A stretch of DNA of 64,000 bases from Eledone cirrhosa (taxonomy: Eukaryota): positions 40,114,001 through 40,178,000 of the forward strand of contig OZ024748.1 in the NCBI GenBank assembly GCA_964016885.1, read 5' to 3'. The translations under genes were made by a program, and so were the position numbers. Positions within the stretch are counted from its first letter, which is position 1. Each line of letters opens with the position of its first letter. This document shows positions 4,057 through 57,690 of the stretch, one piece after another. The notes beneath the pieces are model-generated. The model searched no databases, was not told the DNA's origin, and saw nothing but the letters and a program-made list of their open reading frames with translations.

Positions 4057-4073
4057 ATGGACTTCTCCGATCT
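4057..4073 (+). CDS. tnaA: Tandem-domain tryptophanase-like gene, coding exon 1 (MDFSDL)
   Basis: Kozak-like GCCATGG, then ATG GAC TTC TCC GAT CT|GTAAGA. The phase-2 donor matches the phase-2 acceptor at 10498 and gives MDFSDLSDFIEPF. Confidence 0.6.
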
Positions 4074-4121
4074 GTAAGAAAATCTTCTTTTCAATATTTT
4101 TTTCGAAATTATATATATGTG

Positions 4122-4214
<93 letters not shown>

Positions 4215-4236
4215 TACGTTATTCCGGGTTGAATCG

Positions 4237-4290
4237 GAGGTATCCTGATGATTTCTAATGAATGAAACAGTTCTAGTCCTGTAGAATCTC
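4237..4290 (+). ncRNA. Degenerate type I hammerhead ribozyme motif
   Basis: CTGATGA 4245-4251, short stem II ttc/gaa, GAAA 4264-4267, stem III CAG/CTG and a GTA cleavage triplet. Stem I is imperfect and position 10.1-11.1 is a U.U mismatch. Confidence 0.4.
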
Positions 4291-5020
4291 ATCTATATTA
4301 AAACTATATATATATATATATATAGCGGCGATGAATTAGTTTTGCGAGGTTTTTTATATGAAATCGTGTGTCGAAACAAATATTGTTATACTTGGGTAGG
4401 GTCATATTTGTGTAATATTGCCAGAATTAATAACAGAACACACTCACTGTTTGGTTGGTTTTCGCTTCTCGCTGTCTTTTATATCGGTAATCTAACTTAC
4501 TCGGTCCTCAATGTTGCCATTGACTGACCGACGGTCAAAAATAATACAGATACAATATAGACACAAACACATATATATAGTTTATCATAACTCTTTCGTT
4601 GCACATCTGCAACATCGTCAGTGGTGTTATATTTTCCTCCTGTTGTGTTGTATGTCTACGCCATTTTTATTCAGTCTGTCTATATATTTATTTATTTATT
4701 TGCTTGTTTGTTTATTTTATTTCGTCTTCTTTGCGCATGCGTTTGCGTGTGTGTATAGTGTTATGTTTGCTGTGTGATGGGTGACTAGTGTGTGTTTATG
4801 TGCTTGTTGTTATTGTGCTTGTGTATGTATTTATTTATTTATTTATCTTATTTTATTTACTTATTTATACTTCTCTTAGGTCAGTATTGTTTGTTTGGGT
4901 GTTGTTGTTATTCCATTCATTCTTTCTGTTTAGCTTTGGTCTTCTAATTTCTATTTCACTGGCCTCTCTGATTTGCCTATCTGCTGGCTCATTTCTATGT
5001 TTAGATATTATTCTAATTTC

Positions 5021-5125
5021 TATGTTGTCTATGTTACCGTCATGTTGTTGTCTAGCATGTTCGTATAGTACTGAGTACTATACGAACATGCTAGACAACA
5101 ACATGACGGTAACATAGACAACATA
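5021..5125. repeat. Perfect palindrome with 52-bp arms and a 1-nt spacer
   Basis: 5021-5072 is the exact reverse complement of 5074-5125. Confidence 0.95.
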
Positions 5126-5158
5126 TTCTGGCAATATTACACAAATATGACCCTCCCC

Positions 5159-5488
<330 letters not shown>

Positions 5489-6106
5489 CAGGGGTTGGAC
5501 AAAATAATGGAAACACCTAGCATCATAGAATCATAATTTTGAAATATCTATAAAACCGTCAAAAGCTTGTTTATTTTTATTGTTCTCGAGGTGGTCATTA
5601 ATTTTGGTAGTAATTTTGGTAGTAATTTTGGTAGTAATTTTGGTAGTAATTTTGGTAGTAATTTTGGGAGCTGTACTTTTGTGATCCTTTCTAACAATTC
5701 GCGTAAGAGTCCGACGGTATCTATCTGAAAGTTTTGGTTTTCTTCCGGAGTTTTGTTTCGACAAGGAGGTTTTTCCCTCTTTCTCAAAGACTGTCATTAC
5801 TTTCGAGACAGTACTTCTTGATACACCAAACATTTCAGATGTTTTCGTTACGCTAGCGCCTGCCATACGAGCACCAACAATTTGACCTCTTTGAAAGTCC
5901 GATAGATCTGTCATTTTAATGAATTTTAATTACCTTTTTCTGATGATATCTGGAGAGAAACAGCGATTTTAACAAATCATATTAAGCAACACTAATAATA
6001 AATAAAAAAAAAAACATAAAAATAAACAATCTTTTGACGGTTTTATAGATATTTCAAAATTATGATGCTATGATGCTAGGTGTTTCATTATTTTGTCCAA
6101 CCCCTG
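5489..6106 (-). mobile_element. Internally deleted Tc1/mariner DNA transposon
   Basis: About 90-bp TIRs (CAGGGGTTGGACAAAATAAT...) flanked by TA. Internal ORF 5531-5914 encodes a Tc1 paired/HTH N-terminus (MTDLSDFQRGQIVGAR...VSRSTVSKV, GRKPKLS) with no DDE domain. Confidence 0.92.
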
Positions 6107-6176
<70 letters not shown>

Positions 6177-6286
6177 GTAGGAGGTGAGTTTTATTGTAGT
6201 ACGATAAAGCAATGCAGAATATCGGATAAGTTGATTTAAAACTGCACTATCCACAAGTGTTTTTTAGCCTTCATATCATGTTCTCC

Positions 6287-6357
6287 TGTTTTATCTGATG
6301 AAAACACAAATATTATTGCATGATGATGTTTGTTTTTGAAATGCGCATAATAAAATA
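6287..6357 (+). ncRNA. Minimal type I hammerhead ribozyme
   Basis: Stem I TGTTTTAT/ATAAAATA, core CTGATGA (6295-6301), long stem II, GAAA (6338-6341), stem III T-GCGC-A with a palindromic loop, and an AUA cleavage triplet. Confidence 0.8.
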
Positions 6358-6387
6358 CATGGAACTCCTTTAACCATCTTTTGATCT

Positions 6388-6430
<43 letters not shown>

Positions 6431-6479
6431 ATGTATAATATATATATATATACATAATGTATAATATATATACATAATG

Positions 6480-6528
<49 letters not shown>

Positions 6529-6573
6529 GTGACGAAACATAAGTCAATTGCATGAACTCATAATCCTTTATTT

Positions 6574-6629
6574 ACTGCTATATATATTTCGATGATAGCC
6601 ATTGAGTGGCTATGACCTCATCAGGCAGT
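6574..6629 (-). ncRNA. Minimal type I hammerhead ribozyme
   Basis: The minus strand reads ACTGC CTGATGA GGTCATAGCCA-CTCAA-TGGCTATCATC GAAA T-ATAT-A TA GCAGT. Stems I, II and III and the catalytic core are intact. Confidence 0.8.
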
Positions 6630-6695
6630 TAGTAAGTTCTTAGATATGCCAGCTCTGTGCATATGGTGTTGATTGTATCAGAGCCTTGGGGCATA

Positions 6696-6737
<42 letters not shown>

Positions 6738-7170
6738 ATGTATAATATATATATATAATGTATAGCTATACACTGTATATATAATCATACATTATATATA
6801 TATATATATCCCTTTATCTTCTTCTTCTTCTTCTTCCTCCTCTCTCCTTTTTCTCTCTCTCTTCCCCCCCCCCCCCCCCCCCGTCAAACTTGGGCGAAAT
6901 TCTTTCCTTGCTCACATTTCAACCAGGTTTGATGGTCTTTTGTCTCTTGTTCACGATTTCACAGAGTTTATATTCATAGAGATCTGGGACTTGTCTATTT
7001 CTACTCACTTTCCGTTGCTAAAACTTTTTTGTTGTTACTCTGGCGTCCCCCTTTATTTACGTGTCCCAACGACTTTTTTTAGCCGTTGTTCGCACCTACC
7101 CGAGGCATATGGCCCTTAAAGCGATGAAATGCCCAGGACGGTTGGAGGGTCACTGATGAAGGACTCACTT

Positions 7171-7213
<43 letters not shown>

Positions 7214-7214
7214 C

Positions 7215-7365
7215 ATATTCCAGCATAGCTACGTCCGTTTACGATCTTAGTTCAAATCCCGTCGAGGTTGACTTTGCCTTTCATCCTTACGGGGTCGATA
7301 AAATAAAGAAGCAGTAATGCACTGGGTAATTGCTGGCCTTGTGCCAAAAAGATGAAACAATTATA
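7215..7365 (+). mobile_element. Family A SINE copy, 5'-truncated
   Basis: Shared central domain and 3' end. Confidence 0.8.
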
Positions 7366-7661
7366 TATATATATAATATATAATATAGATATGTATATAT
7401 ATAATGTAGTGTGTGTTAGTGTGTATATATGTATGTATATATATATACATATGTGTGTGTGTGTGTAACAATTGTTCTCGGTATGGTGAACTAACTGTTG
7501 TGTTAAAGGGTGAAAGCAGCGATTCTTTGCTTAAACTTTAATCTGTTATTTTAATAAATATTTCCTCTAGGGTTCTTATATATTTGATATATATTTATCC
7601 TTATCGAGCCCTCTTTGGATTTTAGTCTTCATATTTATTATTATTATTACTATATATATAT

Positions 7662-8460
7662 ACTAGCTGAGGTACCCGGGAGTATTCCCAGTTCCCATTA
7701 AAATGCCCAATGCCTCTCAGACTAAAAATGAAATACAAATATAGGACAGATAATCAAAAGCGAAGACAAATTCATTTACGAAACAATAATACAAACAAAT
7801 ATTGTTGATTACATTGGTCAGGTGAAAATATGTTCGTCAGAGAAGTTGAATGTTGCTATAAATAACAAATAGAACCCCATTAGGGTGTCTCAATATTATT
7901 GACATTTGCTGAAATTTTGTGAATAGGTATCATATCTTGTCATTTACCTATGATTTAAATTTCATATAAATCGAAGGGAAAACATTTTCAGTGGGGGTTT
8001 TCAACGGGGTTTTGTGCCCCTAGGGACCCTTTGATTAAAATGAAATATACTTATCGAAGTACCCTGGGCAATGTAGTTTTAAAATATATATGGTTATGGG
8101 GGTCTATCTCCAAAAGCATAGGAGGAGTTCGTGAAATCTTGTTCCATTTATTGGCCAAAATGTTCACTATAGGGGGTTTAACCCCCAATAGGGTGTCTTA
8201 ATATTATTGAAATTTGCTGATTTTTTGTGAATAGGCATCATATCTTGTCATTTACCTATGGTTTAAATTTCTTATAAATCGATGGGAAAAAATTAAGCGG
8301 GGGTTTTCAGCAGAGGTTTGAACACCCGGGGAACCCTTTGATTAAAATGAAATATACGTAAGAAATCAAATGGGCATGAGCCCCCACACACGTGTCAAGC
8401 TACATCAAGATCCGTTTGTTAGTTTTTGAGTTTTAGGTTCACCAAATTTGCACTATAGAT
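7662..8460 (-). mobile_element. Non-autonomous Helitron-like element with an internal tandem duplication
   Basis: The minus strand ends in a GC-rich segment followed by CTAG. An internal segment of about 300 bp is duplicated (7875-8160 vs 8182-8360). A related fragment lies at 18240-18498. Confidence 0.55.
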
Positions 8461-8869
8461 GTAACTTTTGCCAAGTAAAAAAGTGAGGGTATTTTTGTCT
8501 ACTGAATTTTGTTAAAAGATTAAAGACATTATTTACATATTCACTTCTTTAAAATTTCAAATGTCAACACTTCCTGTTATACGACATTCCTCACTTTTTT
8601 TCGTCGCACAACATTCCCCTCTTTTTCTTAGTCTGTCTTTTTAGATAGATATAGGGCTATAACGTAGCGTCTTTATAATATGTCTCTGTATGTCTGGCTG
8701 TCTGTATTAGATAACGTTTTTCGAAATATTTACTTCTGGGTTCACAGATTGATTTTTTTTAGTTTCAGAAGTTAAGGGTGAAAGCCTTTGCTTAAACATT
8801 GTTATTTTAATATATATATTCGTGTACAGATATTTTGCATACACAAAAACAAAAACCTATTTATTTCAC

Positions 8870-9330
8870 TAAAGCACAGACGGCTTATCGTCATTGTTAC
8901 TGTTCGAGGTTAGAGGACCACAGTCTTTCCAAGATCTGAGAACCATCAATAGCCATCAATGTTCCACTTACCGTTTGGCTTGCCAGATGCGTGGTTTGTT
9001 ACACGATGACACCTATTGGCACCTCACCCTGCAAGAAGCAGCAACTGCTAAAGTCCCTTCTCAGCTGCGAAAACCTTTTGCTATTATGCTGCACAACTGT
9101 GATCTCGCCACCCCGAAAGTCTAGCTGAGGACATCCTCCACCGCACACGCAGACACAATCCGAGCGTAACATACGATGTCGTTTTCAATGAGGCGCTCAT
9201 CTGTCTTGAAAACAGTGTCCTGGAGATTGGTGGTAGGCTTCTAAGTCACTACAGCTTACCTGCTCCTGACAGGAGTGTCCTGAGGTCAATGTCTACAGAG
9301 CTTCTCCGCGAGACGAGCTACGAGATCAGT
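8870..9330 (+). mobile_element. Helitron RepHel coding fragment, degenerate
   Basis: LLFEVRGPQSFQDLRTIN...TYRLACQMRGLLHDD..W..TLQEAA...PSQLR..FAIML is typical of the region between the Rep and PIF1 helicase domains. Contains stops. Confidence 0.85.
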
Positions 9331-9960
9331 GCTTCTCCAGTGGTCAATTGTATGTAGGATGCTCTAGGGTGAGCTCGCCAAACAATCTCTTCATCTTTGC
9401 TCCGGAGGGCCGAACAAAAAATATTGTATACTCTGAGGCTCTAACAATGTAATTTAAATATTTTCTGTTACTTGGAATTTTCATTTTGGTTGTACAAATT
9501 ATTGTTTGTTAAAAAATGTGTTCTCTGTTCAGCCTTTATTGTTGTAACTCTCAATTATCTTTAACGTACTGGCTGCTGAACTGGGGAATCCTAAAACTAT
9601 TCAAACCCAACATCAGAGCACGTTAACCATTTGGATAGTGAAAGAAAAAGAGAAAAATTTCAAATCTTTTATGAGGGATATGCAAATGAAGTAGAAGAGT
9701 AGACTGAAAATATCGTTATATTTAGACGCCAGGTACATTTAAATAATTATTAGGATACTTTATAAAAGAAGATGAAGCAGAAGAAGGAAGAAAGATAGGC
9801 TCATATTATTATTAGGGTGCAAGTAGATTTAAAAATTTAAAATGTGTTGAAGTGGTAGAATACTAAACCAAAAAGTTTTCAATATATAACCAAATCATGA
9901 GTTATAATATATATATAATGTATATAATTATATTTTAAGGAATTAAGGTTGTAGGTACAC

Positions 9961-10073
9961 TTTAGCTTATTATATTGCAACCAGTCAATTTAGCTTATTA
10001 TATTGAAACCAGTCAATTTAGCTTATTATATGGAAACCAGTCAATTTAGCTTATTATATTGCAACCAGTCAAT
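9961..10073. repeat. 28-bp minisatellite, 4 copies
   Basis: Unit TTTAGCTTATTATATTGCAACCAGTCAA. Confidence 0.9.
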
Positions 10074-10184
10074 TATATACATATTTATATAAATAGATAA
10101 AAATATATACATGCTGTTATTAATTCAAATATAATTTAAGGGTTACGAAGGATATGTGTTTACATTTTCAATATATAGTTAAGA

Positions 10185-10428
10185 AAAAAAAGTCCAAGAT
10201 GGCACGGATGGATCCCTGGGTCTCTTGTCAGTTTGTTTTGCCCGTAAAATCTGTCCGGTGATTCTTTCCTGAGACAATCTAACCACATGTCCATAGTATC
10301 ACAGCTGTGATCTCTCAATTCGGAGAAGTAGCGGCTCTACCTGGAGTAACTCTCTGATCTCAGAACTACGCACTCTATCGAGTAACATTACTCCAAAGAC
10401 CCTTCAGAGGAATCCCATTTCGGCCGCT
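10185..10428 (-). mobile_element. RTE-type LINE 3' coding fragment
   Basis: Similar to the 13510-14290 fragment (shared tctcaattcggagaagta and cactatcgagtaa blocks). Confidence 0.6.
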
Positions 10429-10498
10429 TGTATTGTTTCTATTTACGAAATAACACAACTGAGGATTTTAATAGTGTCAAATTTTCGTTTCCTTTCAG

Positions 10499-11971
10499 TT
10501 CCGACTTTATCGAACCATTTAAAATACATATTGTAGAGAACATAAAGATCAATAACCGTAACGACAGATTAATTGCTCTCGAGAAAGCTGACTACAACAT
10601 CTTTAAAGTACAACCTGAAGATGTCATGATCGATTTCCTTACAGATGCTGGCACTAATGCTTTCAGTCTTGAACAAAACGCAAGAATATGGATGGGTGAT
10701 GAAAGTTATGCCGGATCTACTAGTTATGAAACTTTGAAAGACACGGCAACATATATTTCTGGTTTTGAAAACATTCTGCCAGTTTTTTCTGAATGTATCA
10801 GTGAAGAGATTGTCGCTTCTTATTTCACAAAAGCTGGAGATAAGGTTATTGGGAATACTTTTACTTATTCACTTGAGAACCATATAAAGGATCTTCATGC
10901 TGAAGCGATTTCTTTGTTAGATTGGTCAGATAATAATTTTGCAGGAAATCTAGATGTTCAAGCACTCAAAAACTTATTGGCAGAAAATGATAAAAAATCA
11001 ATTTCCTTTCTTATAATGAATGTACCAGCAAAAAGTAGTGGTGGCCAACCAGTTAGTATGTCAAACATGAAAGCAGTTTCTGATCTCTGTCGCGAACATT
11101 CGATTCCGATATACATCGAAAGTAGTATGTATGGTGAGAACTGTTGGCTCAATAAAATGTACGAAGAGGCTTACTTCAATAAATCGTTAGTTGAGATATC
11201 GCAAGAAATGTTTTCTTTTTTCGATGGCTGCATTATTTCTGCTAAAAGAGATGGTAGAAGTGAGATTGGAAGTGTCATTTGTCTTCAAGACAAAGAAATG
11301 ACTCGAAAATTGGGCACTGTTATTACTCTTAAAGCAGGTTTCATAACTTATGGTGGGATGGCTGGCCGAGATATGGAAATGGTAGCGGTTGGCATGCGAG
11401 GTGCTTTGGATGAACTGCAAGACTATCGACAAAAACAATTGGCATTTTTCAAAAGATCCCTGAAGGAATTTGGTGTTCCGATTGTGGAGCCAGTCGGTTG
11501 TAATACCATCTTCATTGATGCCGAAAATGCTTTTCCTAACTGTAAACACGCGTTTTATCCAGCCTGGTCTTTATCTTGTGCTGTTTATATCGTCGGGGGT
11601 ATCCGATGCGCAGAGTTTGGTCAAGTTACTCGTCCAACAAGCAGCTTACCCACTAATCATTTCCTGAAAGACCGAGAATTACTAAAGCTTGAGATACCTC
11701 GTTTCATCTATACGACTTGTCACATTTTCTATGTTGCCTATGTTTTCGCTCAGCTTATTTCACATGAAATGCTTTCTGGAATGAAACTTATTGCCTGCTC
11801 CGAAGACCAAATAAAACTCGTGAAAATAAAAATGAAGCCAAATCATTCTCTGGAATATGACGATATCCAACTCCTTCCGGTACAAGACTGTGAACACAAT
11901 CACTTCTTTAAAAACATATCTCATCAAAGAGTTATGAAAAGAAATTCAATCGCCGAGGCATCTTCTATATG
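10499..11971 (+). CDS. tnaA: Tandem-domain tryptophanase-like gene, exon 2: domain 1 (non-catalytic, PLP Lys replaced by Arg) plus linker
   Basis: Acceptor TTTCCTTTCAG|10499 and donor TG|GTCAGT at 11971/11972. Motifs EPFKIHIVE, IDFLTDAGT, MGDESYAGS, GGQPVSMSNM, SAKRDG, GFITYGGMAGRDME and GGIRCAEFG match the TnaA/TPL family. Without splicing the ORF stops at 11993. Confidence 0.88.
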
Positions 11972-13509
11972 GTCAGTCGACATTCCTTCTTAAAAAGGGG
12001 ACAAACACGTTAGATAATGTAATCGTAGACACAAAAAAGACGTGGTGGTCATGATTGGAACGTCCCTGATCATATAATTGCTCTGTCAATGTTGACCTGA
12101 ACTTAAACAACAGCAACAACAACACAGAAATTTTTTTTTGTTGCACCCAAACAGGGTTCTGTAAATTCTAGATTGTACATTCTTTTATTCTTTTACTGGT
12201 TTCAGTCATTAGACTGTGGCCATGTTGGGGCACTGTTCTTTTACTGGTTTCAGTTATTAGACTGTGGCCATGCTGGGGCAGTGGTCTTTTACTGGATTCA
12301 GTGATTCTACTGTGGCCATGCTAGGGCACCAATTGATTGTTAGTTTATTTTTTTTAATTGGTTTTATTACCAACAATTAAACTATTGAACATGATTTTGA
12401 ATAGAAAGTAGGGGAAAACATTGACAGTCTTGTCAAATATAGTTTTAATATTATGTTAACAAAAAAAGGAAATAAAATATCTTTGGAAACTTAAATATAT
12501 TTCTTGTGATGTTCTTTTTACAATTATTTCACCAATATATAATTAATATCAAACATTGTGATGTATGTTTCACCAATATATAATTAATATCAAACATTGT
12601 GATGTGGTTGTGATAATTCGGGGAAAGATGGTACAACGAATATTAGATAAACTAAGGTGAAAAGATACAACAAATCAGCATTTTAAACTTTCGTCTTATA
12701 TTTCTTGATATTTTGAGGTGAGAAACTATTTTCAAAAGAAAGAAATGGAGTCTGGTGTTGTCAACGCCCAAAGAAATGTTGATAAACGATTTATTTACAT
12801 CAACTTATTATTGATGGTGACATGCTTTTGTTTCACTTTAAAAAAATATTATAATAAGGTGACATACTAATATAAATATTATTTTAAAAATAAAAAACAA
12901 ATCTTGAAACATCTTATGACTGTGGCAGTGGCAAGGTTTATAGAGTTAAGAAGCCTCACAACCATCTGATTTCCGGTTCCTTTAGACTACATGGCATCTT
13001 AAAGAAGTGTCTTTCTGCCATAGGTTCGAGTCAACAAAACGGACAGTTTGCCCTTTTCGGCTTGGCGGGCAGCAGGGCCTGGACTGGTGGTGGAATGCAC
13101 CAGGTTGGCACTTGCAATTAATTGTAATATAACTGATAGATGTTGTTTCAATTCTGTGCCATTAATTGTAGATCAACGACAACATTGTTGCAGTAGTTAT
13201 TTCAATTATGTGCCATTAATAATCTGTGTTACGAACACTACATAAATAGTCTACAGGTGTTACCTTGATTTCACCAGATGGAAATATCAAAATCAAAATT
13301 GATTATGTAATTGTTCCAAACAATATTCTCGAAATGGTGAAAAACTGCCATGTGTATATTTCTACAGATATTGGTCTAGAATATTTCAACTTAGAGACTG
13401 GAAAACACAAACGTTATTATCATAAATGTACTGTGATTGTGTGAGGCTTAATTATTAAAGATTGTAAAATCCATTCCCTGTGAATTATATCCAAGAATTT
13501 TCTTTTTCT

Positions 13510-14290
13510 TCCTTCACTTATTCCTGAGAAGGTCGTGGGGGAAGAGTCTTGAAACACTCCTTCTAGCAGGTCCTGTCAGAAGCAACCATCTCCAACTGAT
13601 TTGGCTGGATCCCCAAGCGATACCTGCCAAGCTTATGGATGTTATCCAACTATCTTGCTCAGGGTCTACTCCTGGGTCTCTTGCTGGTTGGTTTTGCCAA
13701 TAAAATCTGTCCAGTATTTCCTTGGACATTCTAGCCATATAATATGTAATATCAGAGCTATGATTTCTCAATTCGGAGAAGTATCAGTTCTACCAGGAGT
13801 GATTAACAAGTCTCCAAGCTACACACACTATCGAGTAATGATACTCCAAATACCCTTTTGGAGGAACCCCATTTTGGCCACTTGTATTTGCGATTGTATT
13901 CTTTCAGTCATTACACAAGATTCATGACCATAGGTAAGGGTTGGCACGAAAACCGAATTGAAGATAGTGAGTTTGGTGTTTACACCTACCTCCCTTCTTC
14001 TGATTACCAAATGCCAAAGCTGTCACATTACTGCAGCAGCTCCTGCAATTATTGCACTTAATTCGGCCTCCTGCCTTCCATCACTCGTGACCATGGCCCT
14101 GAGATACTTGAACTTCTCTACCAACTTCAGTAGAACTCCTTTCGCATGTAGAATGCACTGCGCAGGCTTCCTTTAGAAGACGAGTGTCTCAGTTTTCACA
14201 GCACTGAATTTCATTCCAGCCATGCATCACTCTGCATCAAACCTAACAAGTGCAAGTCAGAGATCACCTTTTGTTGAGTTTGTAACACCA
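13510..14290 (-). mobile_element. Degenerate RTE-type LINE fragment (RT C-terminal/thumb region)
   Basis: KLTIFNSVFVPTLTYGHES and VEKFKYL-type motifs, split across frames by stops. Confidence 0.75.
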
Positions 14291-14393
14291 TGTTGTCTGC
14301 AAATTCCAGCCACAAATTGCTGGCCATGTGCCTAAATTAGAAAACCTTATTCCTGCAAAAGGTCCTGTTAATCCTTAATTATTATTAAATATA

Positions 14394-14547
14394 ACATATA
14401 TACAAACTGAAGCTGTGTCAGGGACCAGCCTGCAAACATATATACAAACTGGAGCTGTGTCAGGGACCAGCCTGCAAACATATATACAAACTGGAGCTGT
14501 GTCAGGGACCAGTCCGCAAACATATATACAAACTGGAGCTGTGTCAG
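14394..14547. repeat. 42-bp minisatellite, about 3.5 copies
   Basis: Unit ACATATATACAAACTGGAGCTGTGTCAGGGACCAGCCTGCAA. Confidence 0.9.
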
Positions 14548-14669
14548 TGACAATGTCTGCAAACAATGAGTTGAACATTTTAACACCAAGAAATATATGA
14601 TAAGTAAAAACTACAGTTAACAGATTTTTGTGTTTTGAATTACTAAAGTGACTCGTGTACAATGTAATT

Positions 14670-14708
<39 letters not shown>

Positions 14709-14912
14709 TCTCTCTATATGTATGTGTTTTTATATAAATATGTAAATATTTGTGTATATATATATATATATAGTTGTTATATAGTAAGGTGTATTATTGG
14801 TTGTGTCATACGGTCCAATAAACTTTTGTTAGCAATATTAAGTTCTCCACGCTTTTGTATATCTCCAATTCCATTTAAGGGAACAGCTAGATGATGTAAA
14901 ACGGAGTATTTG

Positions 14913-16503
14913 TATCAAAATAAAGATCCGAAAGCATGGTATAAATTTCCAATCATTTTAATCACAACACGTTTCAATAAGGGATAGATCGATCGTGTGG
15001 TCATGATCGATTATCACTGATTTCATCATTCTTAACTGAGTGTGTAATACGTCTATTTACTAACTGAGAGAACTCTATGGTTAGGGTATTCTAAACCTTC
15101 CTCAGGATTTTTGGAAAGTAACCTACCACTAACTGCCCCCTTTTTACCTTAGCCATAGAGTTCTCTCAATTAGCAAAAAATAGACAATCACACACTCAGG
15201 TAGTAGACAGCTAAGATCATTTGCGCACCTACACACTGTACTGGGTATGTTTCCACAGAGTTCTCACAGCTGAGTGCATATTTACCATTACTTTAGAATA
15301 CCTAGTTAGTAAATAGTTAGAACAATTACACTCGCAGTTAAGACCGATTACGCGCATTCACCATTACTTTAGAATACCCTAACCATAGAGTTCTCTCAGT
15401 TAGTAAATAGACGTATTACACAGTTAAGAACGTTACGTTCTTTATACATAATTCTACACAGTACCCGGTTTCTTTAGACACAGAGTTGCCACAGTTATGA
15501 CCAGTCATGATCTTGTCGATTGAATACTACACTAGGTTTTGGTCTGTGATCCTCTAACCAAGGAGTGCTCACAGTTTGCTGAATGGACAATACTACTTAC
15601 ACGCCATCAATGGAGTTACACACATCCCCGGGGTTTTGTTATTTTATTTTGTGTTGGGTAACACACCTCCACCACTCAAACACTTATCTTAAAGGCCCGA
15701 GGGCCCATTTGACGGGAAAACGCACACACTGACAGCTTAACTCAAATACCCAACCTTATATGGAGCCCCTTGTTGGCCTACATGGCAGGTGCTTGCACGC
15801 ACAGACTCGGGGACCCAGATTCTCAACGGGACAACGGCACATATAGAGTTTGATACGAGCTGACTACTTGCTCTACACATGGATGTGTATATACCAAAAC
15901 ATACACTATTTAGACGATACAGATGTTACAATTCAATCGATACACGTATAGCAGAACGTTGAAGGGAATTTACTTGCGTGTGTATAGTGTTGTGGTTGAC
16001 CCAATTTTTTTCTAATTTACATCGTGAAAATTGAGATTTGACCAATATAACGTTTGTTGTTTTGTAACCTAACTTTTGGTGCATACTGTGTTGCTGTGTA
16101 TATTTTTTTTTTCTCTGACCTCGCGTCGGTGTGTGTGAGTGTGTGTGCACTCAATAACACTAATTGTGGCGGACCAAAATTCTACAGATCTGGTGCTGAG
16201 ATTAGACCTGTCCAGCGTCTTTTACAGCTATTGAGAGATAGAGACTTGATAGATTTATGACCCTGACTGAAGACAATAGCAGTTGTCGTGTTTTGGCTGC
16301 TGATTATTCATATGGGGAACAAAACTCCAGTGAGTGAACATCGTTAGTTTTTCCTCCCTCATATCAAAGATTTGAAGACATTTCATTATTCACCTGAGAT
16401 CAGTGATAATCGATCATGACCACACGATCGATCCCTTATTGAAACGTGTCGTGATTAAAATGATTGGAAATGTATACCATGCCTTCGGATCTTTATTTTG
16501 ATA
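14913..16503. repeat. Fold-back segment with about 105-bp inverted repeats (14913-15021 / 16399-16503) and a nested inner inverted repeat (about 15030-15095 / 15367-15428)
   Basis: Direct reverse-complement matches with few mismatches. Confidence 0.85.
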
Positions 16504-16540
16504 TATATATATAAAACTGAATTTACATTTTTTTTTCCAG

Positions 16541-17930
16541 TCTCCAAGCAATGGAACCTTACAGGATTAAGGTATTTTATCCAGTCAATTTAATCCCCAA
16601 GTCTGACCGTATTGCATGTCTAAAAGCTGCCAACTACAACCCCTTTCTACTTAAATCGAAAGACATATTTATAGATTTGCTAACAGATTCTGGTACAGGA
16701 AGTCAAAGCAGTGCCCAGTGGTCGGCTATGACTAAAGCCGGCTATTCAACTATTAATTCCGAATACGTTAAGGAATTTGTACGTACAATTCAACACATTA
16801 CCAATTTCAAACATGTATTTCCAGTTCATCAAGGTCGAGGAGCCGAAGGTTTGTTGGCAAAACTCCTACTGAATAAAGAGAGTGTTGTACTGAGTAATTC
16901 TCTCTTTGACACAACACGAGCACACGTTGAGTCATCTGGTGCAATTGGAATAGATTTGGCAACAAAGTCTTCAAAATTCTTAGGTGATGCCGATGTGGAA
17001 AAATTTGAAGAAACACTGGATGAATATGGTTCTAGAGTTCATCTTGAAATAATAACCTGCACCAATAATGTGGTAGCCGGAGCTCCTGTGAGCATGCAAA
17101 ATATAGAAATCATAACAAAATTATGTCGAAACAAGAATATCCCAGTTATAATGGACGCATGCCGTTTTGTTGAAAATGCTTATTTTATCAAGACCTTAGA
17201 CGAAAAATATTCTAAACACACAATCTTAGATATTGCCAGCGAAATGTTTTCTTATTTTGATGGTGCAACTATGTCTTTAAAGAAAGATGGTATGAGCAAT
17301 GAAGGTGGGTTTATAGCTTTCAACAACGACAAATGGGCCACCAAAATATTTGACATAATCGAATATAAAAGTGGTTATTCAACTTACGGGGGAATAACTG
17401 GATCAAATCTTGTAGCATGTACTGTCGGAATTTCTGAGGCTATGAACGAAAATTACCTCCGATCAAGAATCTATCAGGCTAAATTACTGGCTGATTTCTT
17501 GGAAGATAATAATATTCCCGTATTTAAACCAGTAGGGGCCCATGCCGTCTACGTGAAAGCAAACAAAGTCTTGCCACACCTTGATTTCTTGAAGTATCCA
17601 GCATGGTCCCTTAATTGTGCCGTATATATCGAAGGTGGTATTTGATGTGCAGAAATTGGCAATATAATGTTTGGTGAAAATTCAGATGGAACAAAACAAA
17701 TTCATCCCTTTGAATATGTGCGTTTGGCTTTACCCAGAAGAACCTATACGGTCAACCATCTGCATTTTGTGGCCAAAACTTTTGGTTTTGTTGCCAAAAA
17801 AGCCCATTTAATCCACGGAATGGAAATTGTCAAATCTTCGCATCTCCTAAGACATTTCACAATTTGGATGAGACCATTAAATGAATACCACCTTGAAAAG
17901 AATAATAATCAGAAAAAAATAAACTGTTGA
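16541..17930 (+). CDS. tnaA: Tandem-domain tryptophanase-like gene, exon 3: domain 2 (PLP-binding tryptophanase domain) with an in-frame TGA at 17643-17645
   Basis: Acceptor TTTTTTTCCAG|16541 (phase 2). Motifs MEPYRIK, IDLLTDSGT, HQGRGAE, FDTTRAH, DACRFVENAY, SLKKDG (PLP Lys 17283-17285), CAEIG, VRLALPRR and LRHFT. ORFs 16551-17645 and 17667-17930 are in the same frame, separated by a single TGA. FDTT, EIG and LRHF indicate tryptophanase rather than tyrosine phenol-lyase (FTTT, ERG, LRFF). Confidence 0.9.
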
Positions 17931-20340: not shown

Positions 20341-21100
20341 TATATGGATAATAGGATGAATTTGGTACAACCAATAAATTATAAAGGCAACAAATATTTT
20401 CTTGTTTTAATATTGCAGTTTATACATATCTTAAGAAGCAGTATAAGAAAAGCTTACATTTCATTTTCAAACTTAAGTAAAAAATAAAATATATATTTAT
20501 TTTCAATTTTTAAAATGCGAGCAAAAACATAAAATCGATTTCAATATTCATCACACACACATATATATACATGTATATTATTTGGAAAAAAAAGGGGGTG
20601 GGGTAAAGTTTTATACAAAAAAATGATGACCAGTTCGAATATTTGAGAGAAAACTCAAGTATATTCGAACTGCTCAGATATTAAAAAAATTTCTTTTATT
20701 AATATTCAATATTTAACATCTAATATTTGATAAAATTGTTTTACCAATCGAAACCAGTTATATTTAATGCAACAATTATAAAATTATTCATTCTGTCAGA
20801 TTAAAGAAAAAATAATCTTTTAATATTCCCTGGACTTTGGCAATTTCAACCCCCTACCAACAGTACTGCTGGTTCACTCTGGGTCACAGCGTCTGAGACA
20901 AGTCAGAGCGTAGTGTCCAAATAATTATTTTAAATTATTCTATGAAAAATAAAAATTAATTACACGTATCTAAATATCACAATTTGTTTTGTTGGATGCT
21001 CTACCAACTTTGCCATCAACCAGTCATTTCTATCAAATAATTTCCAATAATATTTGTGAATATGAAAAGGTAAAGAAAGATCGATATATGTGTGTGTATA

Positions 21101-21858
21101 TATAACGTCTGAATAGCTCAGGCTGTCATAACTGATAGTCCTCAGAGAAATGTGTATAACGTCTGAAGAGCTCAGGCTGTCATAACTGATAGTCCTCAGT
21201 GAAATATGTATAACGTCTGAAGAGCTCAGGCTGTCATAACTGATAGTCCTCAGTGAAATATATATAACGTCTGAAGAGCTCAGGCTGTCATAACTGATAG
21301 TCCTCAGTGAAATATGTATAACGTCTGAAGAGCTCAGGCTGTCATAACTGATAGTCCTCGGTGAAATATATATAACGTCTGAAGAGCTCAGGCTGTCATA
21401 ACTGATAGTCCTCAGTGAAATATGTATAACGTCTGAAGAGCTCAGGCTGTCATAACTGACAGTCCTCAGTGAAATATGTATAACGTCTGAAGAGCTCAGG
21501 CTGTCATAACTGACAGTCCTCAGTGAAATATGTATAGCGTCTGAAGAGCTCAGGCTGTCATAACTGATAGTCCTCAGTGAAATATGTATAACGTCTGAAG
21601 AGCTCAGGCTGTCATAACTGACAGTCCTCAGTGAAATATGTATAGCGTCTGAAGAGCTCAGGCTGTCATAACTGAGTCCTCAGTGAAATATGTATAACGT
21701 CTGAAGAGCTCAGGCTGTCATAACTGATAGTCCTCGGTGAAATGTGTATAACGTCTGAAGAGCTCAGGCTGTCATAACTGATAGTCCTCAGTGAAATGTG
21801 TATAACGTCTGAAGAGCTCAGGCTGTCATAACTGATAGTCCTCGGTGAAATGTGTATA
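21101..21858 (+). repeat. 54-bp tandem array (14 units), each unit a hammerhead-ribozyme motif
   Basis: Unit ACGT-CTGAAGA-GCTCAGGCTGTCATAACTGA(T/C)AGTCCTCAGT-GAAA-TAT(G/A)TATA, containing the CUGANGA/GAAA core, a stem II hairpin and an AUA triplet. Confidence 0.85.
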
Positions 21859-22940: not shown

Positions 22941-24746
22941 TATTCATTAGTTAAGCAAAACAAGACAACAAATTTCACAAGGAAGACATTATTAAAAGAT
23001 TGTCAACATATTTTAGTTTGATGTAAGGAATGTAGAGAATAATAATTTCTACTTTAGGCACAAAGCCAGCTATTACCCAGTACATTACTGGTACTTTATT
23101 TTATCGACCCCGTAAGGATGAAAGGCAAAGTTAACCTCGGCGGGATTTGAACTCAAACCGTAAAGGGACGTAACTATGCTAGAAATCATGGCGTTCAACC
23201 CTCTGCCAATCCACCGCCCTTTTATATAATAATATTAATAATAATAATGTCCGTTTACAATTGTTTCGCTACTCCATATAATATTTCTGGATCAAATGAT
23301 TATATATCATTATTGATCTGGTTCAGTTGAAAATAATTACTATAGGTAAAGATAGAGCAGCTCATCGGAACTTCAAAAGGAATATAAATTAAAATAAGGA
23401 AAGAATGTTACATAAATGTAATGTTCCATATATTGGTATTTCACTATGGTGACCTGGGTATATCAATTGTCTGCCATAGTCGAGCAGTATTCTTCTGTCG
23501 AGGCTGCATTGTGTGAGATCTGCCTATGGGTAACAAGATGGCCGCCAATGTACATATTTACCTTACTAATTAGAGGGTGGTTTCAGGGGAAGTAACTCCT
23601 CGAGAGATTAGAAATTGTGGGTAGTTTATAGTTAAGTGCTAATTTTTTTTATTTTGAGACAATGTAAGGGAGGTAACTTATAATTATTTAAGTTAGTTAT
23701 AGCTATTTAACTTATTAGCTACAAGTAAAAATGGGGCTAGATGACTATGTTGGCGAAGGAATTAGCCCTTCGATGTTGACAGCTAATAGTTACCTTCGTT
23801 CTATCATTAATCAGTAGAGGTTGTGATAGAGTTATGTAATATGCTTCAGCTAGAGATGTCGAACATTTGTTGTTAGGGTCTCAGAAGGAAAAGGAGTGCG
23901 CGTTATAGCGTACCTTAAAAGGGTTAGAGGTAGACCCAATATAGGAGCTGGTATGCGAAGCAGTTTTAACTGTGCACCTATAGACTATGTTGGGTGTCAG
24001 GCAATGTCCATTTAGTGGGCATGCATTAGGGTAACGGCAGTTGCAGTTACTTCTGCGGTTAGTGAGAGTAGGGTTGTTTAACCTAAGCGGTTGGTCAGTG
24101 CTAGGATTAGATGGGGGAGGTGTGCTACTAGAGTAAGTATTGGTGTAGCGGCATGGTGTATCCGATGGGGGGGGGGGTACCGCGGTGTGGGAGTTATACT
24201 GTCTTAGTTTATCATGGTTACTGAATGTGATGTGGCAAGCTAAGTTAGGTGTTGTGGAGAATGAGATTTTAATGTTATTTTTATTAAAGAGTTTGTAATA
24301 TCTATGGTGGGGGGGGGGGGGTGTTTAGATAGGATAGAGAAGAAGCATTTAGGGATATTAGTGGCTAGATTAGATGAGAATGGGGGGTTAAGCCAGGTGA
24401 TATTTCTAGGCATATTCCTTCTAGGGGTTCTAGTGGAGTTGGAACATTACATTTATGTAACATTCTTTCCTTATTTTAATTTATATTCCTTTTGAAGTTC
24501 CGATGAGCTGCTCTATCTTTACCTATGTTAATTATTTTCAACTGAACCAGATCAATAATGATATATAATCATTTGATCCAGAAATATTATATGGAGTAGA
24601 GAAACAATTGTAAACGGACATTATTATTATTAATATTATTATTATTAGTCTCTACATTCCTTACATCAAACTAAAATATGTTGACAATCTTTTAATAATG
24701 TCTTCCTTGTGAAATTTGTGGTCTTGTTTCGCTTAACTAATGAATA
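22941..24746 (-). mobile_element. Penelope-like element remnant (GIY-YIG endonuclease) between about 300-bp inverted repeats
   Basis: The minus strand at about 23830-24050 reads CNCRYPNACPLNGHCLTPNIVYRCTVK..SYIGSTSNPFKVRYNAH. Arms 22941-23428 (interrupted by a SINE at about 23040-23220) and 24440-24746 are reverse complements. Confidence 0.8.
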
Positions 24747-26083: not shown

Positions 26084-26469
26084 CTGAAAAGTATGGAAGG
26101 AAAACACAGAAAAAAGACAAATCAATGTTTATGAAGGAACAAGAAAATAAGAGAGACAAGTTAAAACAATTATATTTCAAAGACTCAATGTATAGTCATG
26201 ACACAAGTATTATAACGGGGAATTGGTAGACACATTAACTCTTAACGCCTGTTTTACATGAAACCACATTAGTAAGACACTCTTGAAAAGTTCAAAACAA
26301 GACTATGACTGCATCATATTAAGTATTCAAATCTTTAGTTTACAGCAAATTTTCACAACAGTGTGTCCAATTGTAAAGACACTATAAACGTTAGAATAAA
26401 CAAACCAGTCTTTAGATATTTTCTATTGAAGAATTGCAAGATGTTAAGAGTTCAATGTCAGCTTAATTC

Positions 26470-28570
26470 ATTACCATATTTCTCACAAAAGACACTGTAT
26501 GTCATTAACCCTTTCATTGCCATATTTCTAATGAAAGACAAAGTCTATGTCATTAACCCTTTCATTACCATATTTCTAATGAAAGACACTGTCTATGTCA
26601 TTAACCCTTTCATTACCATATTTCTAATGAAAGACAGTCTATGTCATTAACCCTTTCATTACCATATTTCTAATGAAAGACACTGTCTATGTCATTAACC
26701 CTTTCATTACCATATTTCTAATGAAAGACAGTCTATGTCATTAACCCTTTCATTACCATATTTCTAATGAAAGACACTGTCTATATCATTAACCCTTTCA
26801 TTACCATATTTCTAATGAAAGACACTGTCTATGCAATTAACCCTTTCATTAACATATTTCTCACAAAAGACACTGTCTATTTCATTAACCCTTTCATTAC
26901 CATATTTCTAATGAAAGACATTGTCTATGTCAATAACACATTCATTACCATATTTCTAATGAAAGACACTGCCTATGTCATTAACACTTTCATTACCATA
27001 TTTCTAATGTAAGACACTGTCTGTCATTAACCCTGTCATTACTATATTTCTAATGAAAGACACTGCCTATGTCATTAACCCTTTCATTAACATATTTCTA
27101 ATGAAAGACACTGTCTATGTCATTAACCCTTTATTATCATATTTCTAATGAAAGACACTGTCTATGTCATTAACTCTTTCATTACCATATTTCTAATGAA
27201 AGACACTGTCTATGTCATTAACCCTGTCATTACCATATTTCTAATGAAAGACACTGCCGTTGTCATTAACCCTTTCATTACCATATTTCTAATGAAAGAC
27301 ACTGTCTATGTCATTAACCCTTTCATTACCATATTTCTAATGAAAGACAGTCTATGTCATTAACCCTTTCATTACCATATTTCTAATGAAAGACACTGTC
27401 TATGTCATTAACCCTTTCATTACCATATTTCTAATGAAAGACAGTCTATGTCATTAACCCTTTCATTACCATATTTCTAATGAAAGACACTGTCTATATC
27501 ATTAACCCTTTCATTACCATATTTCTAATGAAAGACACTGTCTATGCAATTAACTCTTTCATTAACATATTTCTCACAAAAGACACTGTCTATTTCATTA
27601 ACCCTTTCATTACCATATTTCTAATGAAAGACATTGTCTATGTCAATAACACATTCATTACCATATTTCTAATGAAAGACACTGCCTATGTCATTAACAC
27701 TTTCATTACCATATTTCTAATGTAAGACACTGTCTGTCATTAACCCTGTCATTACTATATTTCTAATGAAAGACACTGCCTATGTCATTAACCCTTTCAT
27801 TACCATATTTCTAATGAAAGACACTGTCTATGTCATTAACCCTTTCATTACCATATTTCTAATGAAAGACACTGTCTATGTCATTAACTCTTTCATTACC
27901 ATATTTCTAATGAAAGACACTGTCTATGTCATTAACCCTGTCATTACCATATTTCTAATGAAAGACACTGCCGTTGTCATTAACCCTTTCATTACCATAT
28001 TTCTAATGAAAGACACTGTCTATGTCATTAACCCTTTCATTACCATATTTCTAATGAAAGACACTGACTATGTCATTAACCCTTTCATTACCATATTTCT
28101 AATGAAAGACACTGACTATGTCATTAACCCTTTCATTACCATATTTCTAATGAAAGACACTGTCTATGTCATTAACCCTTTCATTACCATATTTCTAATG
28201 AAAGACACTGACTATGTCATTAACCCTTTCATTACCATATTTCTAATGAAAGACACTGACTATGTCATTAACCCTTTCATTACCATATTTCTAATGAAAG
28301 ACACTGTCTATGTCATTAACCCTTTATTATCATATTTCTAATGAAAGACACTGTCTATGTCATTAACCCTTTATTATCATATTTCTAATGAAAGACACTG
28401 TCTATGTCATTAACTCTTTCATTACCATATTTCTAATGAAAGACACTGTCTATGTCATTAACCCTGTCATTACCATATTTCTAATGAAAGACACTGCCAA
28501 TGTCATTAACCCTGTCATTACTATATTTCTAATGAAAGACACTGTCTATGTCATTAACCCTTTCATTACC
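26470..28570. repeat. 48-bp intronic minisatellite (about 43 units) with a higher-order duplication of about 713 bp
   Basis: Unit AAAGACACTGTCTATGTCATTAACCCTTTCATTACCATATTTCTAATG. A variant block at 26767 recurs at 27480. Confidence 0.95.
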
Positions 28571-28944
28571 AAATATACCAATAATAATAATCTATACTAT
28601 AAAAGAGAAGCTGTTTGTCCGTCACAACATATAGGTAGAAGTGAAATGAGAAGAAGTGGATTGTTGTTGTTAAGAGAGAGAGAGAGAGGCAGAGAGAAAG
28701 GGTATGTGAAATAAAGATAAATAGTTTAAAGTGTAATTCAAGGATTATGATGAGAATAAATTAACATATTTCAATATCTTTCTTTAGGAAATATTTTCTC
28801 TCGCGTTTATTTGCTTAATAATATTCAAAGTGTTATTAAAGTTCAGCAAGAAAGTCAATCTATTATTTGAACAATTCATAAATGTAAGTACATGATGATT
28901 AACAAATACTTTTACTGGCAGTGTAGCAACAATATAATAATAAC

Positions 28945-29220: not shown

Positions 29221-29704
29221 CTAAATTGTGAGATAAAGCATCGAGATTAGATTCAAGTTACTATAGGAAGAATTAAACTGTCTAAAAGTTGCTTCAAATG
29301 TATTGAAACTACCTTGGTCAGAAAATAACGCACAACATATATAGAAATAATTCTTTTACTGATTCCAGTAACTGCAGCCATGAAATATACTTAATCATAT
29401 CAACTCCAGTACTAATCTTTAGTCAACCATAACACCAATCTATACAATTAGAAATATACCCATTTGAAACTTGTCCCAATTTACCTGTCACACCCTGTGT
29501 GTGTAGAGAGAGAGAAATTCTGTATATGTGTTTACTCATCTCTTAATGAGCAAAGAGAGATCGATAAAATATGTTACTTGACTTAAAACTAAGTACTGGG
29601 ATCAATATGATTGACTTAACATTTCTAGGTTGTGCCCCAGTATGACCAGTTTCATGGCCGAAAGCAAGAATATTGAAATAAGAAATAAAATACATTTTCC
29701 TTAC

Positions 29705-29768
29705 CCAGGTACGCTATCAATAAGGGTATTTGGTACATAGCCATGCAGCATCATCTGTCCATTGTCCT
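29705..29768 (-). CDS. STAT: STAT5-like exon with the phosphotyrosine motif (HGYVP)
   Basis: EDNGQMMLHGYVPNTLIDSVPG. TTCTTCAG acceptor and GTAAGG donor. GYV matches STAT5 DGYVKP. Confidence 0.85.
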
Positions 29769-29859
29769 CTGAAGAAACACAAGAAAAAAAAATTAATTAA
29801 TGAAGAATTTTGAGTTATTTACTAAAATTATTAATTATTTCATTACTAAGACAGTAACG

Positions 29860-30515
29860 TAACCCTTTCATGGCCACATTTCTAATGAAATACACTATTT
29901 TAATTAACTAATGAAGTATTTCAAGTTATTTACTAAAATTATTAATTAGGCACATGGCTTAGTGGTTAGAGCATTGGCTTTGCAATCGAAAGGTTGTGAG
30001 TTCAATTCTCAGACCGGGTGATGTGTTGTTTCCTTGAGCAAGACACTTTATTTCACATTGCTCCAGTTTACTCAGCTGTAGAAATGAGATGATAGGACTG
30101 TGGTCCCTATCATTCCACTGTAAAGTGGACGTGGAGGCGACACGGCAAAAAAAAAGCACCCACCACTCACTGTAAATGAGGTTGGTGTTAGGAAGGGCAT
30201 CCAGCTGTAGAAATCAAGCCAGAATCAGTTCCTGTCCCACCCTTGCAAGCAGGGAAAAGTGGACGTAAAATGAAATGATGATGATGATTTCATTACTAAG
30301 ATAGTAACTTAATGTAAGGTTCTTATATAAAATTATGTTGGGAGATTTTAATTTAAATTGGAAACATTAAAAATGGGTTTTATTTTATAGAATCAGCAGC
30401 AGTTTTGGCCGTGACGAGGGTTAGTAACTAAAGGGTGGGAGTTGGTAACTAAAGGGTGGGGGTTGGTAACTAAAGGGTGATGGGGGTTGGTAACTAAAGG
30501 GTGACGGGAGTTGGT
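29860..30515. mobile_element. Degenerate MITE-like element (AACCCTTT...AAAGGGT ends) interrupted by a family B SINE (29950-30288)
   Basis: Left end TAACCCTTTCA...ATTTCTAATGAAATACACT. Right end GGTAACTAAAGGGT, repeated about 4 times at 30420-30515. Confidence 0.5.
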
Positions 30516-30774
30516 ATCAAAAGTGTTTACTTTACTCTATATATACTATTGTATTTTCACAGAAAAGGCTTTATCTCACATAATTATCTGACATCAAATC
30601 TTATGAGATTTTGATATTTATTTTGAAAACCTTAACTTCAGTATGAGTAGCCAGTCACGACCGGTTTGAACAGAAAGAGATGAGAGAATTCTGACCGGTC
30701 ATGGCCAGTCTAAATGCTAAAGGTTTAACCAATTTAATAATAAAAAAAACTTATAAAATACCAATCTTCATTAC

Positions 30775-30927
30775 CTTCTTCTTCAGTAGTCTTTGGAAAG
30801 GCATCACTTTTCACAGTGTCTGGATACAGGTATTTCAACATCTTCAAATCATGTATTCTTTTCTCCAATGACCGAATACTTAATTCCTTATGATCATATG
30901 GCTTCAAGTTCCAAACATGGGATTTTC
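30775..30927 (-). CDS. STAT: STAT5-like exon, C-terminal half of the SH2 domain
   Basis: GKSHVWNLKPYDHKELSIRSLEKRIHDLKMLKYLYPDTVKSDAFPK (compare STAT5 WNLKPF..FSIRSLADRL.DL..L.Y.FPD.PKD..F). Phase 1-1. Confidence 0.93.
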
Positions 30928-31308
30928 CTGATAATAATAATAATAATAATTGTTATACTTTGGTAGGGTCATGTTGCCAATAAAAACACATGCATCTGTT
31001 GGTTTCAATTAAATTTATTATAAATTTCTGGTTGGTTGGTTGGATAACCGGATGGTTGTTTATTTTTTGTCAAAGGAGGAGGTTACAGAATGTGTGACAA
31101 AAGAGCTTTGACAATATATAAACAACTATCTGGTTATCAAATGGAACAAAACCGTCTAACCCATGCTAGCATGGAAGATGGACGTTAAACGATGATGATA
31201 ATGATGATGATATATTGGTAAATCTAAAAGATGACTGGGCCTTAGATTGGAAAAAAATACAAAAGGCTTCGGAACATTATCCAAAAAATAGATGCAAAAT
31301 GTAGTTAC

Positions 31309-31442
31309 CACAATCCCGTTTGACCCAAGCAATGGTAATACCACCAAGTAAATTATCACTGAAACGTAGCAGGAATGTTCCATTTCGTTTGGGGTTTAAC
31401 ATTTGTTGAGCTTGATCTTTTGCAATGAAACCAGCAATCAGA
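31309..31442 (-). CDS. STAT: STAT5-like exon, SH2 core
   Basis: [40 protein letters not shown]. Canonical splice sites, phase 2-1. Confidence 0.95.
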
Positions 31443-31819
31443 CTGTGAAAGAAGAGAAAACAACGATGAGACTGTGAGAGGAAAGAGATAACAATGAAAT
31501 AAATACAGATAATAAGTGAAGTTATTAACTTATTTGATAAAAAAAAATTAAACAGGAAAGGGACTGAAATTGAAGAGAGAAGTTCCTTTCATGGAGATCA
31601 CAGCCCCGATATTACAGATATATGGTTAGAATGCTTGAGGAAAGAATCACTGGACAACCAGCAGGATACCCAGAGGTAGATCACGAGCAAGATGGTTGCG
31701 CTCAATTGGGCAACAAGACGGATCAATTGGACACAGTTGCTTCTGACATGACCCACTGGTAGGTGTGTTTCAGGCCTCTGCACCCACGACCCCCTCAGAA
31801 TGAAGTGAGAGGAGTACGA

Positions 31820-33997: not shown

Positions 33998-34003
33998 ACT
34001 TAC

Positions 34004-34930: not shown

Positions 34931-34937
34931 TACATAC

Positions 34938-57500: not shown

Positions 57501-57690
57501 CACCAACCACAACACCAACCACCACCAACTACCACATGACCACCAACCACAACATCACCACCAACCACAACAACACCACCAACCACAACAACACCACCAC
57601 CAACCACAACACCACCACCAAACCAACAACAACACCACCACCAAACCAACAACAACACCACCACCAAACCAACAACAACAACAACAACAA
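54573..57690. repeat. About 3.1-kb degenerate (CCA/CAA)-rich simple repeat filling a STAT intron
   Basis: Shuffled CACCAC/CAACCACAA/CCGCCA motifs with almost no T on the + strand. Confidence 0.95.

Follow-up and report, generated by a model that had tools for sequence, protein, structure and literature searches.

How does an octopus genome come to carry two tryptophanase-like coding blocks side by side, and what could such a pair make? The question is raised by a stretch of 64,000 nucleotides from Eledone cirrhosa (assembly GCA_964016885.1, contig OZ024748.1, positions 40,114,001 to 40,178,000 of the forward strand; hereafter the window), in which two blocks, A and B, resemble tryptophanase and tyrosine phenol-lyase (TPL). 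The original prediction took them for the two domains of one bacterial-type, indole-producing enzyme that had possibly been acquired by horizontal transfer. Instead, the blocks appear to be alternative last exons that give separate proteins, neither of which is a complete enzyme. With considerable confidence, we read the locus as an octopod tryptophan indole-lyase (TIL) locus in which a leader exon is spliced to either last exon, so that it encodes two proteins whose active-site losses are opposite and whose activity is predicted to require an A+B heteromer; the copy in the window is likely a dead duplicate. The locus adds another case to the cephalopod split tryptophanase already known, here as a damaged duplicate.

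Results

A and B keep opposite parts of the active site

Both blocks belong to the tryptophanase/TPL family of beta-eliminating lyases. NCBIfam PRK13238 scores 389 bits for A and 398 bits for the part of B that precedes its premature stop (cut-off 285), and both match 22 solved sequences of the TPL and tryptophanase types in the Protein Data Bank. Neither reaches a narrower class: the TnaA equivalogs score 273-326 bits (cut-offs 825.8 for TIGR02617 and 750 for NF053783) and the TPL equivalog TIGR02618 scores 313-327 bits (cut-off 720.7), B being scored against these models without its last 94 residues.

The residues of the active site, given throughout in E. coli tryptophanase numbering, divide between the two types. 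All seven A-type sequences keep Y74 and Y307 and have lost K270, D227, R230, N198, F136 and R419; these six are kept in all seven B-type sequences, and Y74 is kept in none of them (0/7). The A of the window carries the substitutions K270R, D227E, R230M, N198K and R419K, and its B has lost R419 through the premature stop. Thus, the lysine that binds pyridoxal 5'-phosphate (PLP) and the pocket residues, which a canonical TnaA has in one chain, occur together in the B type and not in A, and Tyr74 and K270 do not share a chain in either (A has only Y74, B only K270). Conservation reaches at least 95% in 129 columns of an alignment with 219 single-domain relatives. Of these columns, A alone has lost 29 and B alone 12, 6 of the latter at positions 71-79, the Tyr74 loop; both types have lost 4, both keep 54, and the other 30 are intermediate.

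Octopod B has D137, I396 and H463, which we take to be the positions that distinguish specificity for tryptophan from that for tyrosine. The diagnostic motifs FDTT, EIG and LRHF, on which indole production had been predicted, are present in the B type only (A reads FTYS, EFG and LVKI), and the EIG and LRHF of the window's B lie after its stop. The TPL-type residues (the Arg381 base and Phe448, equivalent to R396 and F463) are absent, B having I and H there.

The split pattern of residues also occurs in proteins just 45-57% identical to those of the window, so the split is old. In a comparison of A with run X5, 15 of the 24 listed differences, which come from 40 of 199 rows, are at third codon positions (p 0.003); on this evidence A is under selection and not drifting. 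No unsplit tryptophanase was found in the genome with the complete chiton protein as query, all 23 matches being of A or B type. The orthologues in Octopus have the same reciprocal losses, and they are 75% (A) and 82% (B) identical to the window's proteins, in clades supported at 100/100.

One leader exon and two last exons

In O. bimaculoides the A-type protein is XP_014791032.1 (isoform X1) and the B-type protein, separate from it, is XP_014791033.1 (isoform X2); the isoforms X1 and X2 of both this species and O. sinensis begin with MDFSDL. A pattern built from this octopus N-terminus has a single match in the window, a leader with 17 coding bases (Table 1). The gene had been placed at 10499 to 17930, and in fact begins outside that interval, with the leader at 4057. 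Exons A and B are each preceded by a polypyrimidine tract and AG acceptor, and the leader donor and both acceptors are phase 2.

In the E. cirrhosa contig from run X4 (1740 bases), the match to the window begins exactly at 10499, behind 29 unmatched letters, and continues past the stop codon of A to 12205. We infer from this boundary that the contig is a spliced transcript. Contigs of runs X1 and X5 cross the A acceptor uninterrupted, as expected of genomic DNA. The data fit one gene whose leader would be spliced to A or to B as alternative last exons.

Table 1. Features of the locus and its neighbour, in window coordinates.
Feature	Position	Strand	Evidence and remarks
Shared leader exon, coding part (start codon, MDFSD and two bases of Leu)	4057..4073	+	Phase-2 GTAAG donor at 4074
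Intron 1, repeat-rich	4074..10498	+	Sequence; X4 contig boundary; 3' end is a polypyrimidine tract and AG
Last exon A, coding part (tryptophanase/TPL-like block A)	10499..11993	+	Sequence, profiles (NCBIfam PRK13238, Pfam PF01212), residues; 3' UTR reaches at least 12205
Donor-like GTCAGT	11972..11977	+	Sequence; phase 2, a splice from A to B would be possible in principle
Last exon B, coding part (tryptophanase/TPL-like block B)	16541..17930	+	Sequence, profiles (NCBIfam PRK13238, Pfam PF01212), residues
Premature TGA in B	17643..17645	+	Codon 368 of 463; removes the last 94 residues (EIG, R419, LRHF)
STAT gene, 3' exons (approximate span)	about 29704..31465	-	SH2 E 2e-9; STAT5A E 5e-7

The window copy is the last of ten units

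Exon B had been described as uninterrupted, and is broken by an in-frame TGA where intact B copies read Arg, a C-to-T change in a CGA codon. The same unit carries a Val-to-Glu change at 17047 (B) and a one-codon deletion behind 11412 (A). Because its B has the premature stop, the window copy is likely a dead duplicate. It is the last of ten forward units on contig C8 at 39.12-40.13 Mb, which are accompanied by two inverted, truncated A pieces (genome matches L011-L033). Exon copies are more than 99% identical across units. Five of the ten units are complete, with a leader, an open A and an open B (L011, L014, L017, L018 and L019; in L018, A is extended by 19 residues). In two units the leader region is broken and B is frameshifted; one has no leader within 10 kb and a frameshifted A, and one is without leader and B in the DNA examined. 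Six forward and three inverted copies of the leader lie in the array, and the B copies other than that of the window comprise six open and two frameshifted frames.

There are 13 sites at which the X4 contig and the window disagree, and at all of them the contig agrees with unit 1 (L011), the isolated first unit of the array; the other eight units have 12-17 mismatches each. The sole sign of expression would thus belong to unit 1, although contigs drop rare variants and the match leaves the silence of the other units unproven.

That the array is partly an artefact of assembly, and the stop in the window a sequencing error, is improbable. The near-identity of the exon copies would be expected of such an artefact, and read depth was unusable as a measure of copy number, but the units differ in their lesions, inversions, leader loss and A-to-B distance (5.4-6.5 kb), ten units are more than two haplotypes can give, and the stop arises from a CGA codon by a C-to-T change.

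In Argonauta, three consecutive gene models (Ahia01_001214700-900; P0057, P0002 and P0289) include several B-type copies, which suggests that the locus is duplicated there too.

A and B are predicted to share one live active site

For E. coli tryptophanase, each PLP is described as being in contact with Tyr74 and Tyr307 from the neighbouring subunit, and the activity of Y74F as negligible (PMC2770544). Tyr74 is identified as the proton donor to the leaving group (PMC6826157), the TPL counterparts of Tyr74 and the PLP lysine are given as Tyr71 and Lys257 (PMC10170061), and a title reports rescue of activity in hybrid dimers of the E. coli mutants Y74F and H463F (PMID 11900544).

An ordinary tryptophanase builds each active site from two subunits, one binding PLP and substrate and the neighbour lending Tyr74, the general acid, and Tyr307 (PMC2770544, PMC6826157). 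After duplication of the exon, A retained only the lent residues and B only those of the PLP side, and only the A+B pair is expected to be active. An A:B catalytic dimer would hold one live site, with PLP on K270 of B and Tyr74 from A, and one dead site; at the live site, L-Trp would be cleaved into indole, pyruvate and ammonia. With one promoter and one leader for both, the subunits would be made in the same cells, and the choice of last exon would set their ratio. The parent gene is an old animal tryptophanase, as the tree below shows, probably of ancient bacterial origin, and in the E. cirrhosa assembly the unit has recently been amplified to ten copies, half of them already damaged.

Alternatively, B might work on its own as a PLP enzyme whose reaction has changed, for instance towards substrates with good leaving groups, and A might have no catalytic role and act as a regulator or scaffold. 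The entire PLP side is indeed kept in B and lost in A. However, what A keeps, in 7/7 sequences and down to 45% identity, is precisely the Tyr74 loop and segment 303-309, the loop is lost in 7/7 of the B type, and loss of the Tyr74 hydroxyl in E. coli leaves negligible activity. We regard a self-sufficient B as quite improbable.

Two-domain lyases in bacteria, two proteins in cephalopods

A fused A-B protein was our initial reading, taken from the donor-like site at 11972. That site and the B acceptor are both phase 2, and splicing A into B would give a single two-domain chain, a covalent pseudo-dimer like those in bacteria, 41 of which exist; an 847-residue Argonauta model (P0002) also joins A and B types. 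However, the X4 contig, the one spliced contig, ignores the site, and the A proteins of O. bimaculoides and O. sinensis terminate ahead of it. The Argonauta model reverses the order, its B is truncated and separate B models lie next to it, so that it looks like a mis-joined prediction, and a weak search, of 51 matches of 638-2000 residues, returned no fused Octopus protein. The X4 contig and the Octopus isoforms led us to reject the fused chain, which we hold to be very improbable. The reading as two separate proteins is the one carried forward.

Bacterial two-domain proteins of about 840-945 residues were returned by a search for longer relatives and a profile search (P0003-P0033, P0045, P0177, P0190 and P0300-P0332), and the 41 counted here are those with both domains long enough to score. 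In 34 of the 41 (P0005, P0012, P0018, P0023 and P0301 among the two-domain lyases), the N domain has Y74 without K270 and the C domain K270 without Y74, the same split as in cephalopods. In three more (P0008, P0303 and P0332), which are apparent intermediates, the N domain is complete and Y74 is missing from the C domain; two keep both residues in both domains, and two (P0003 and P0004) are reversed, with the Tyr loss in the N domain. The C domains are mostly TPL-type (T137 in 37/41, R396 in 36/41 and F463 in 37/41). The named sources are Eisenbacteria, Aminicenantes, KSB1, Bacteroidales, Planctomycetota and Deltaproteobacteria.

Inheritance of the cephalopod split from a bacterial fusion was rejected by approximately unbiased (AU) tests (p 0.0009 and 2e-40), in which the groups came from a hypothesis that predated the trees, the runs were made after the trees had been seen, and the halves of P0004 stood outside both groups. 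The bacterial proteins differ from the cephalopod pair in being one polypeptide, mostly with TPL-type C domains, and in their separate origin. A search of the open literature gave no paper on a fused or pseudo-dimeric TPL or tryptophanase.

Fusions of a tryptophanase domain with PF11991, which one source names a DMATS-type aromatic prenyltransferase, were also seen (P0037-P0039, P0042, P0047, P0050 and P0052), three of them from Streptomyces.

The family is old in animals

A FastTree phylogeny of 212 sequences and an IQ-TREE phylogeny of 48 (LG+C20, rows hand-picked from the FastTree set) agree; the supports given are from IQ-TREE. A and B are sister groups (92/79) and form a mollusc-like clade with chiton, bivalve, abalone and two further proteins (96/97), which is nested with corals, Priapulus and Gordionus in an animal clade (90/98). 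The animal homologues (from Liolophura, Haliotis, Sinanodonta, Potamilus, Priapulus, Gordionus, Stylophora and Oculina) are complete single chains, with K270 in 11/11 and Y74 in 10/11, unlike A and B, which share their clade; the complete enzyme is likely the ancestral state. Proteins of the annelid Dimorphilus and of Fusarium fall outside the animal clade, which itself has bacterial sequences around it and no resolved sister group.

A recent lineage-specific transfer would nest A and B among bacteria to the exclusion of other animals, and this is not the topology found. The original prediction had placed its transfer at the octopus or mollusc level and had itself named broad animal inheritance as the outcome that would speak against it; an animal-wide clade is what the phylogeny of both blocks gives. 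That the octopus or mollusc lineage recently acquired a bacterial tryptophanase, a view to which the intron-free coding blocks, the mostly bacterial best database matches (43-46% identity) and the position of the animal clade among bacteria would lend themselves, is highly improbable: a chiton protein is the best non-cephalopod match to B among named proteins, complete chiton, abalone, bivalve, Priapulus, Gordionus and coral homologues share the clade of A and B, and forcing A and B together with four near bacterial matches is rejected (AU p 0.0024). On these sequence comparisons, transfer at the octopus level is refuted, and the gene family is old in animals and not a recent bacterial import.

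An ancient transfer from bacteria to animals is likely as the deep origin. One such transfer followed by many losses fits the tree, in a sampling without unicellular relatives of animals that makes deeper inheritance possible. A scan of named bacterial genomes with the chiton protein as query returned no relatives.

The abalone proteins P0324, P0329 (Haliotis) and P0344 keep K270 and have changed specificity residues (no D137 or LRHF), and one is without Y74, which suggests a separate functional change of tryptophanase-like proteins in gastropods.

Host context and neighbouring features

Both tryptophanase-like exons are real host DNA. The prediction that they are host-encoded members of the tryptophanase family, and not contamination, was borne out by the profiles and by the retrotransposon fragments, microsatellites and metazoan STAT exons that it had described on the same contig. 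RVT_1 fragments lie at about 2.9-3.5 kb and 59.3-60.3 kb of the window, and exon A is flanked on both sides by very high-copy repeats. The locus is on a 60.6-Mb contig of a 3.0-Gb assembly, and GC content at third codon positions is 0.32 in exons A and B, between those of two STAT fragments (0.29 and 0.40). Bacterial contamination was rejected on host context, splicing and orthologues. We also rejected STAT as a part of the repeated unit: its SH2 exon has a single match in the whole genome, and STAT is a neighbour.

The rest of the window is rich in repeats. A satellite with a 67-base unit extends for 18.6 kb (35504-54091; about 95% matches, strong strand asymmetry) and, judged by position, may lie inside a STAT intron. 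A CAC-rich repeat of about 3 kb (54573-57666) yields long spurious open frames on several strands. Minisatellites have units of 54 bases (21097-21858), 48 bases (26467-28571 and 34241-34931) and 40 bases (31819-33998). Two short frames, at 8873-9357 (+) and 23881-24324 (-), gave no matches in a Pfam search; we take them to resemble fragments of Helitron and Penelope-type elements.

Discussion

Several points weigh against the reading of this locus as one gene for an A+B heteromer. The records do not list X4 as RNA, and only the boundary of its match marks it as a spliced product; the splicing evidence from E. cirrhosa contigs concerns the A acceptor only. Loss of the lent residues from B is not total, since position 307 of the B type is Tyr in 4/7 and Phe in 3/7. 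Leader and A are intact in the window, so this copy could still supply A. Finally, the supports for the A+B sisterhood and the animal clade, at 92/79 and 90/98, are not higher than that.

In 2023, Yuasa is said to have found two cephalopod TILs, neither of them active by itself, that show weak activity when joined in a heterotetramer. The Octopus TILs match Eledone A and B in their residue losses and in the MDFSDL start; in Eledone, by comparison, there are ten copies of the unit, five of them complete, and the B of the window is broken. What is possibly new here is the shared leader exon, the ten-unit array and the 34 bacterial fusions in which the same split evolved separately. The cephalopod tryptophan indole-lyases are already the subject of a paper (Yuasa 2023, J Mol Evol 91:912, PMID 38007709), and another title by Yuasa from the same year bears on complete animal tryptophanases (PMID 36228898). 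Elsewhere, the Octopus tnaA is listed with its origin left open in the text available (PMC8537960), and extracts of a 2016 article give a KEGG tryptophanase match as absent in O. bimaculoides (PMC4962025).

Bacterial TnaA (EC 4.1.99.1; E. coli, and P. vulgaris 1AX4) and TPL (EC 4.1.99.2) have family and fold in common with A and B, as judged by sequence, but are homotetramers with K270 and Y74 in every chain, and neither A nor B has both. The closest mechanistic analogue may be the trypanosomatid deoxyhypusine synthase DHSc/DHSp, described as a heterodimer of paralogues with one live and one dead site (PMC7581365). Its fold is unrelated and NAD-dependent and its subunits come from two separate genes, whereas Eledone has two last exons.

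Beyond this locus, we propose more tentatively, at slightly less than even odds, a wider reading. In it, the two halves of a PLP enzyme that is an obligate heteromer come from one animal gene, as last exons that exclude each other behind the leader of 17 coding bases, so that splicing sets the ratio of the subunits; and uncultured bacteria of the groups named above independently reached the same division between a Tyr donor and a Lys holder in undescribed single-chain fusions of TPL type, with intermediates still extant. The cephalopod pair would be a natural example of two paralogues that depend on each other through a shared active site, and a layout of one gene with two last exons would explain how the halves are co-expressed. 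The bacterial fusions, with their intermediate stages, would repeat the process independently and so allow the order of losses to be tested. Among cephalopod proteins, the automated label 'tryptophanase' would hide chains that are unable to work alone. If the broader proposal is true, splitting of a shared site would be a repeatable fate of duplicated fold-type I lyases.

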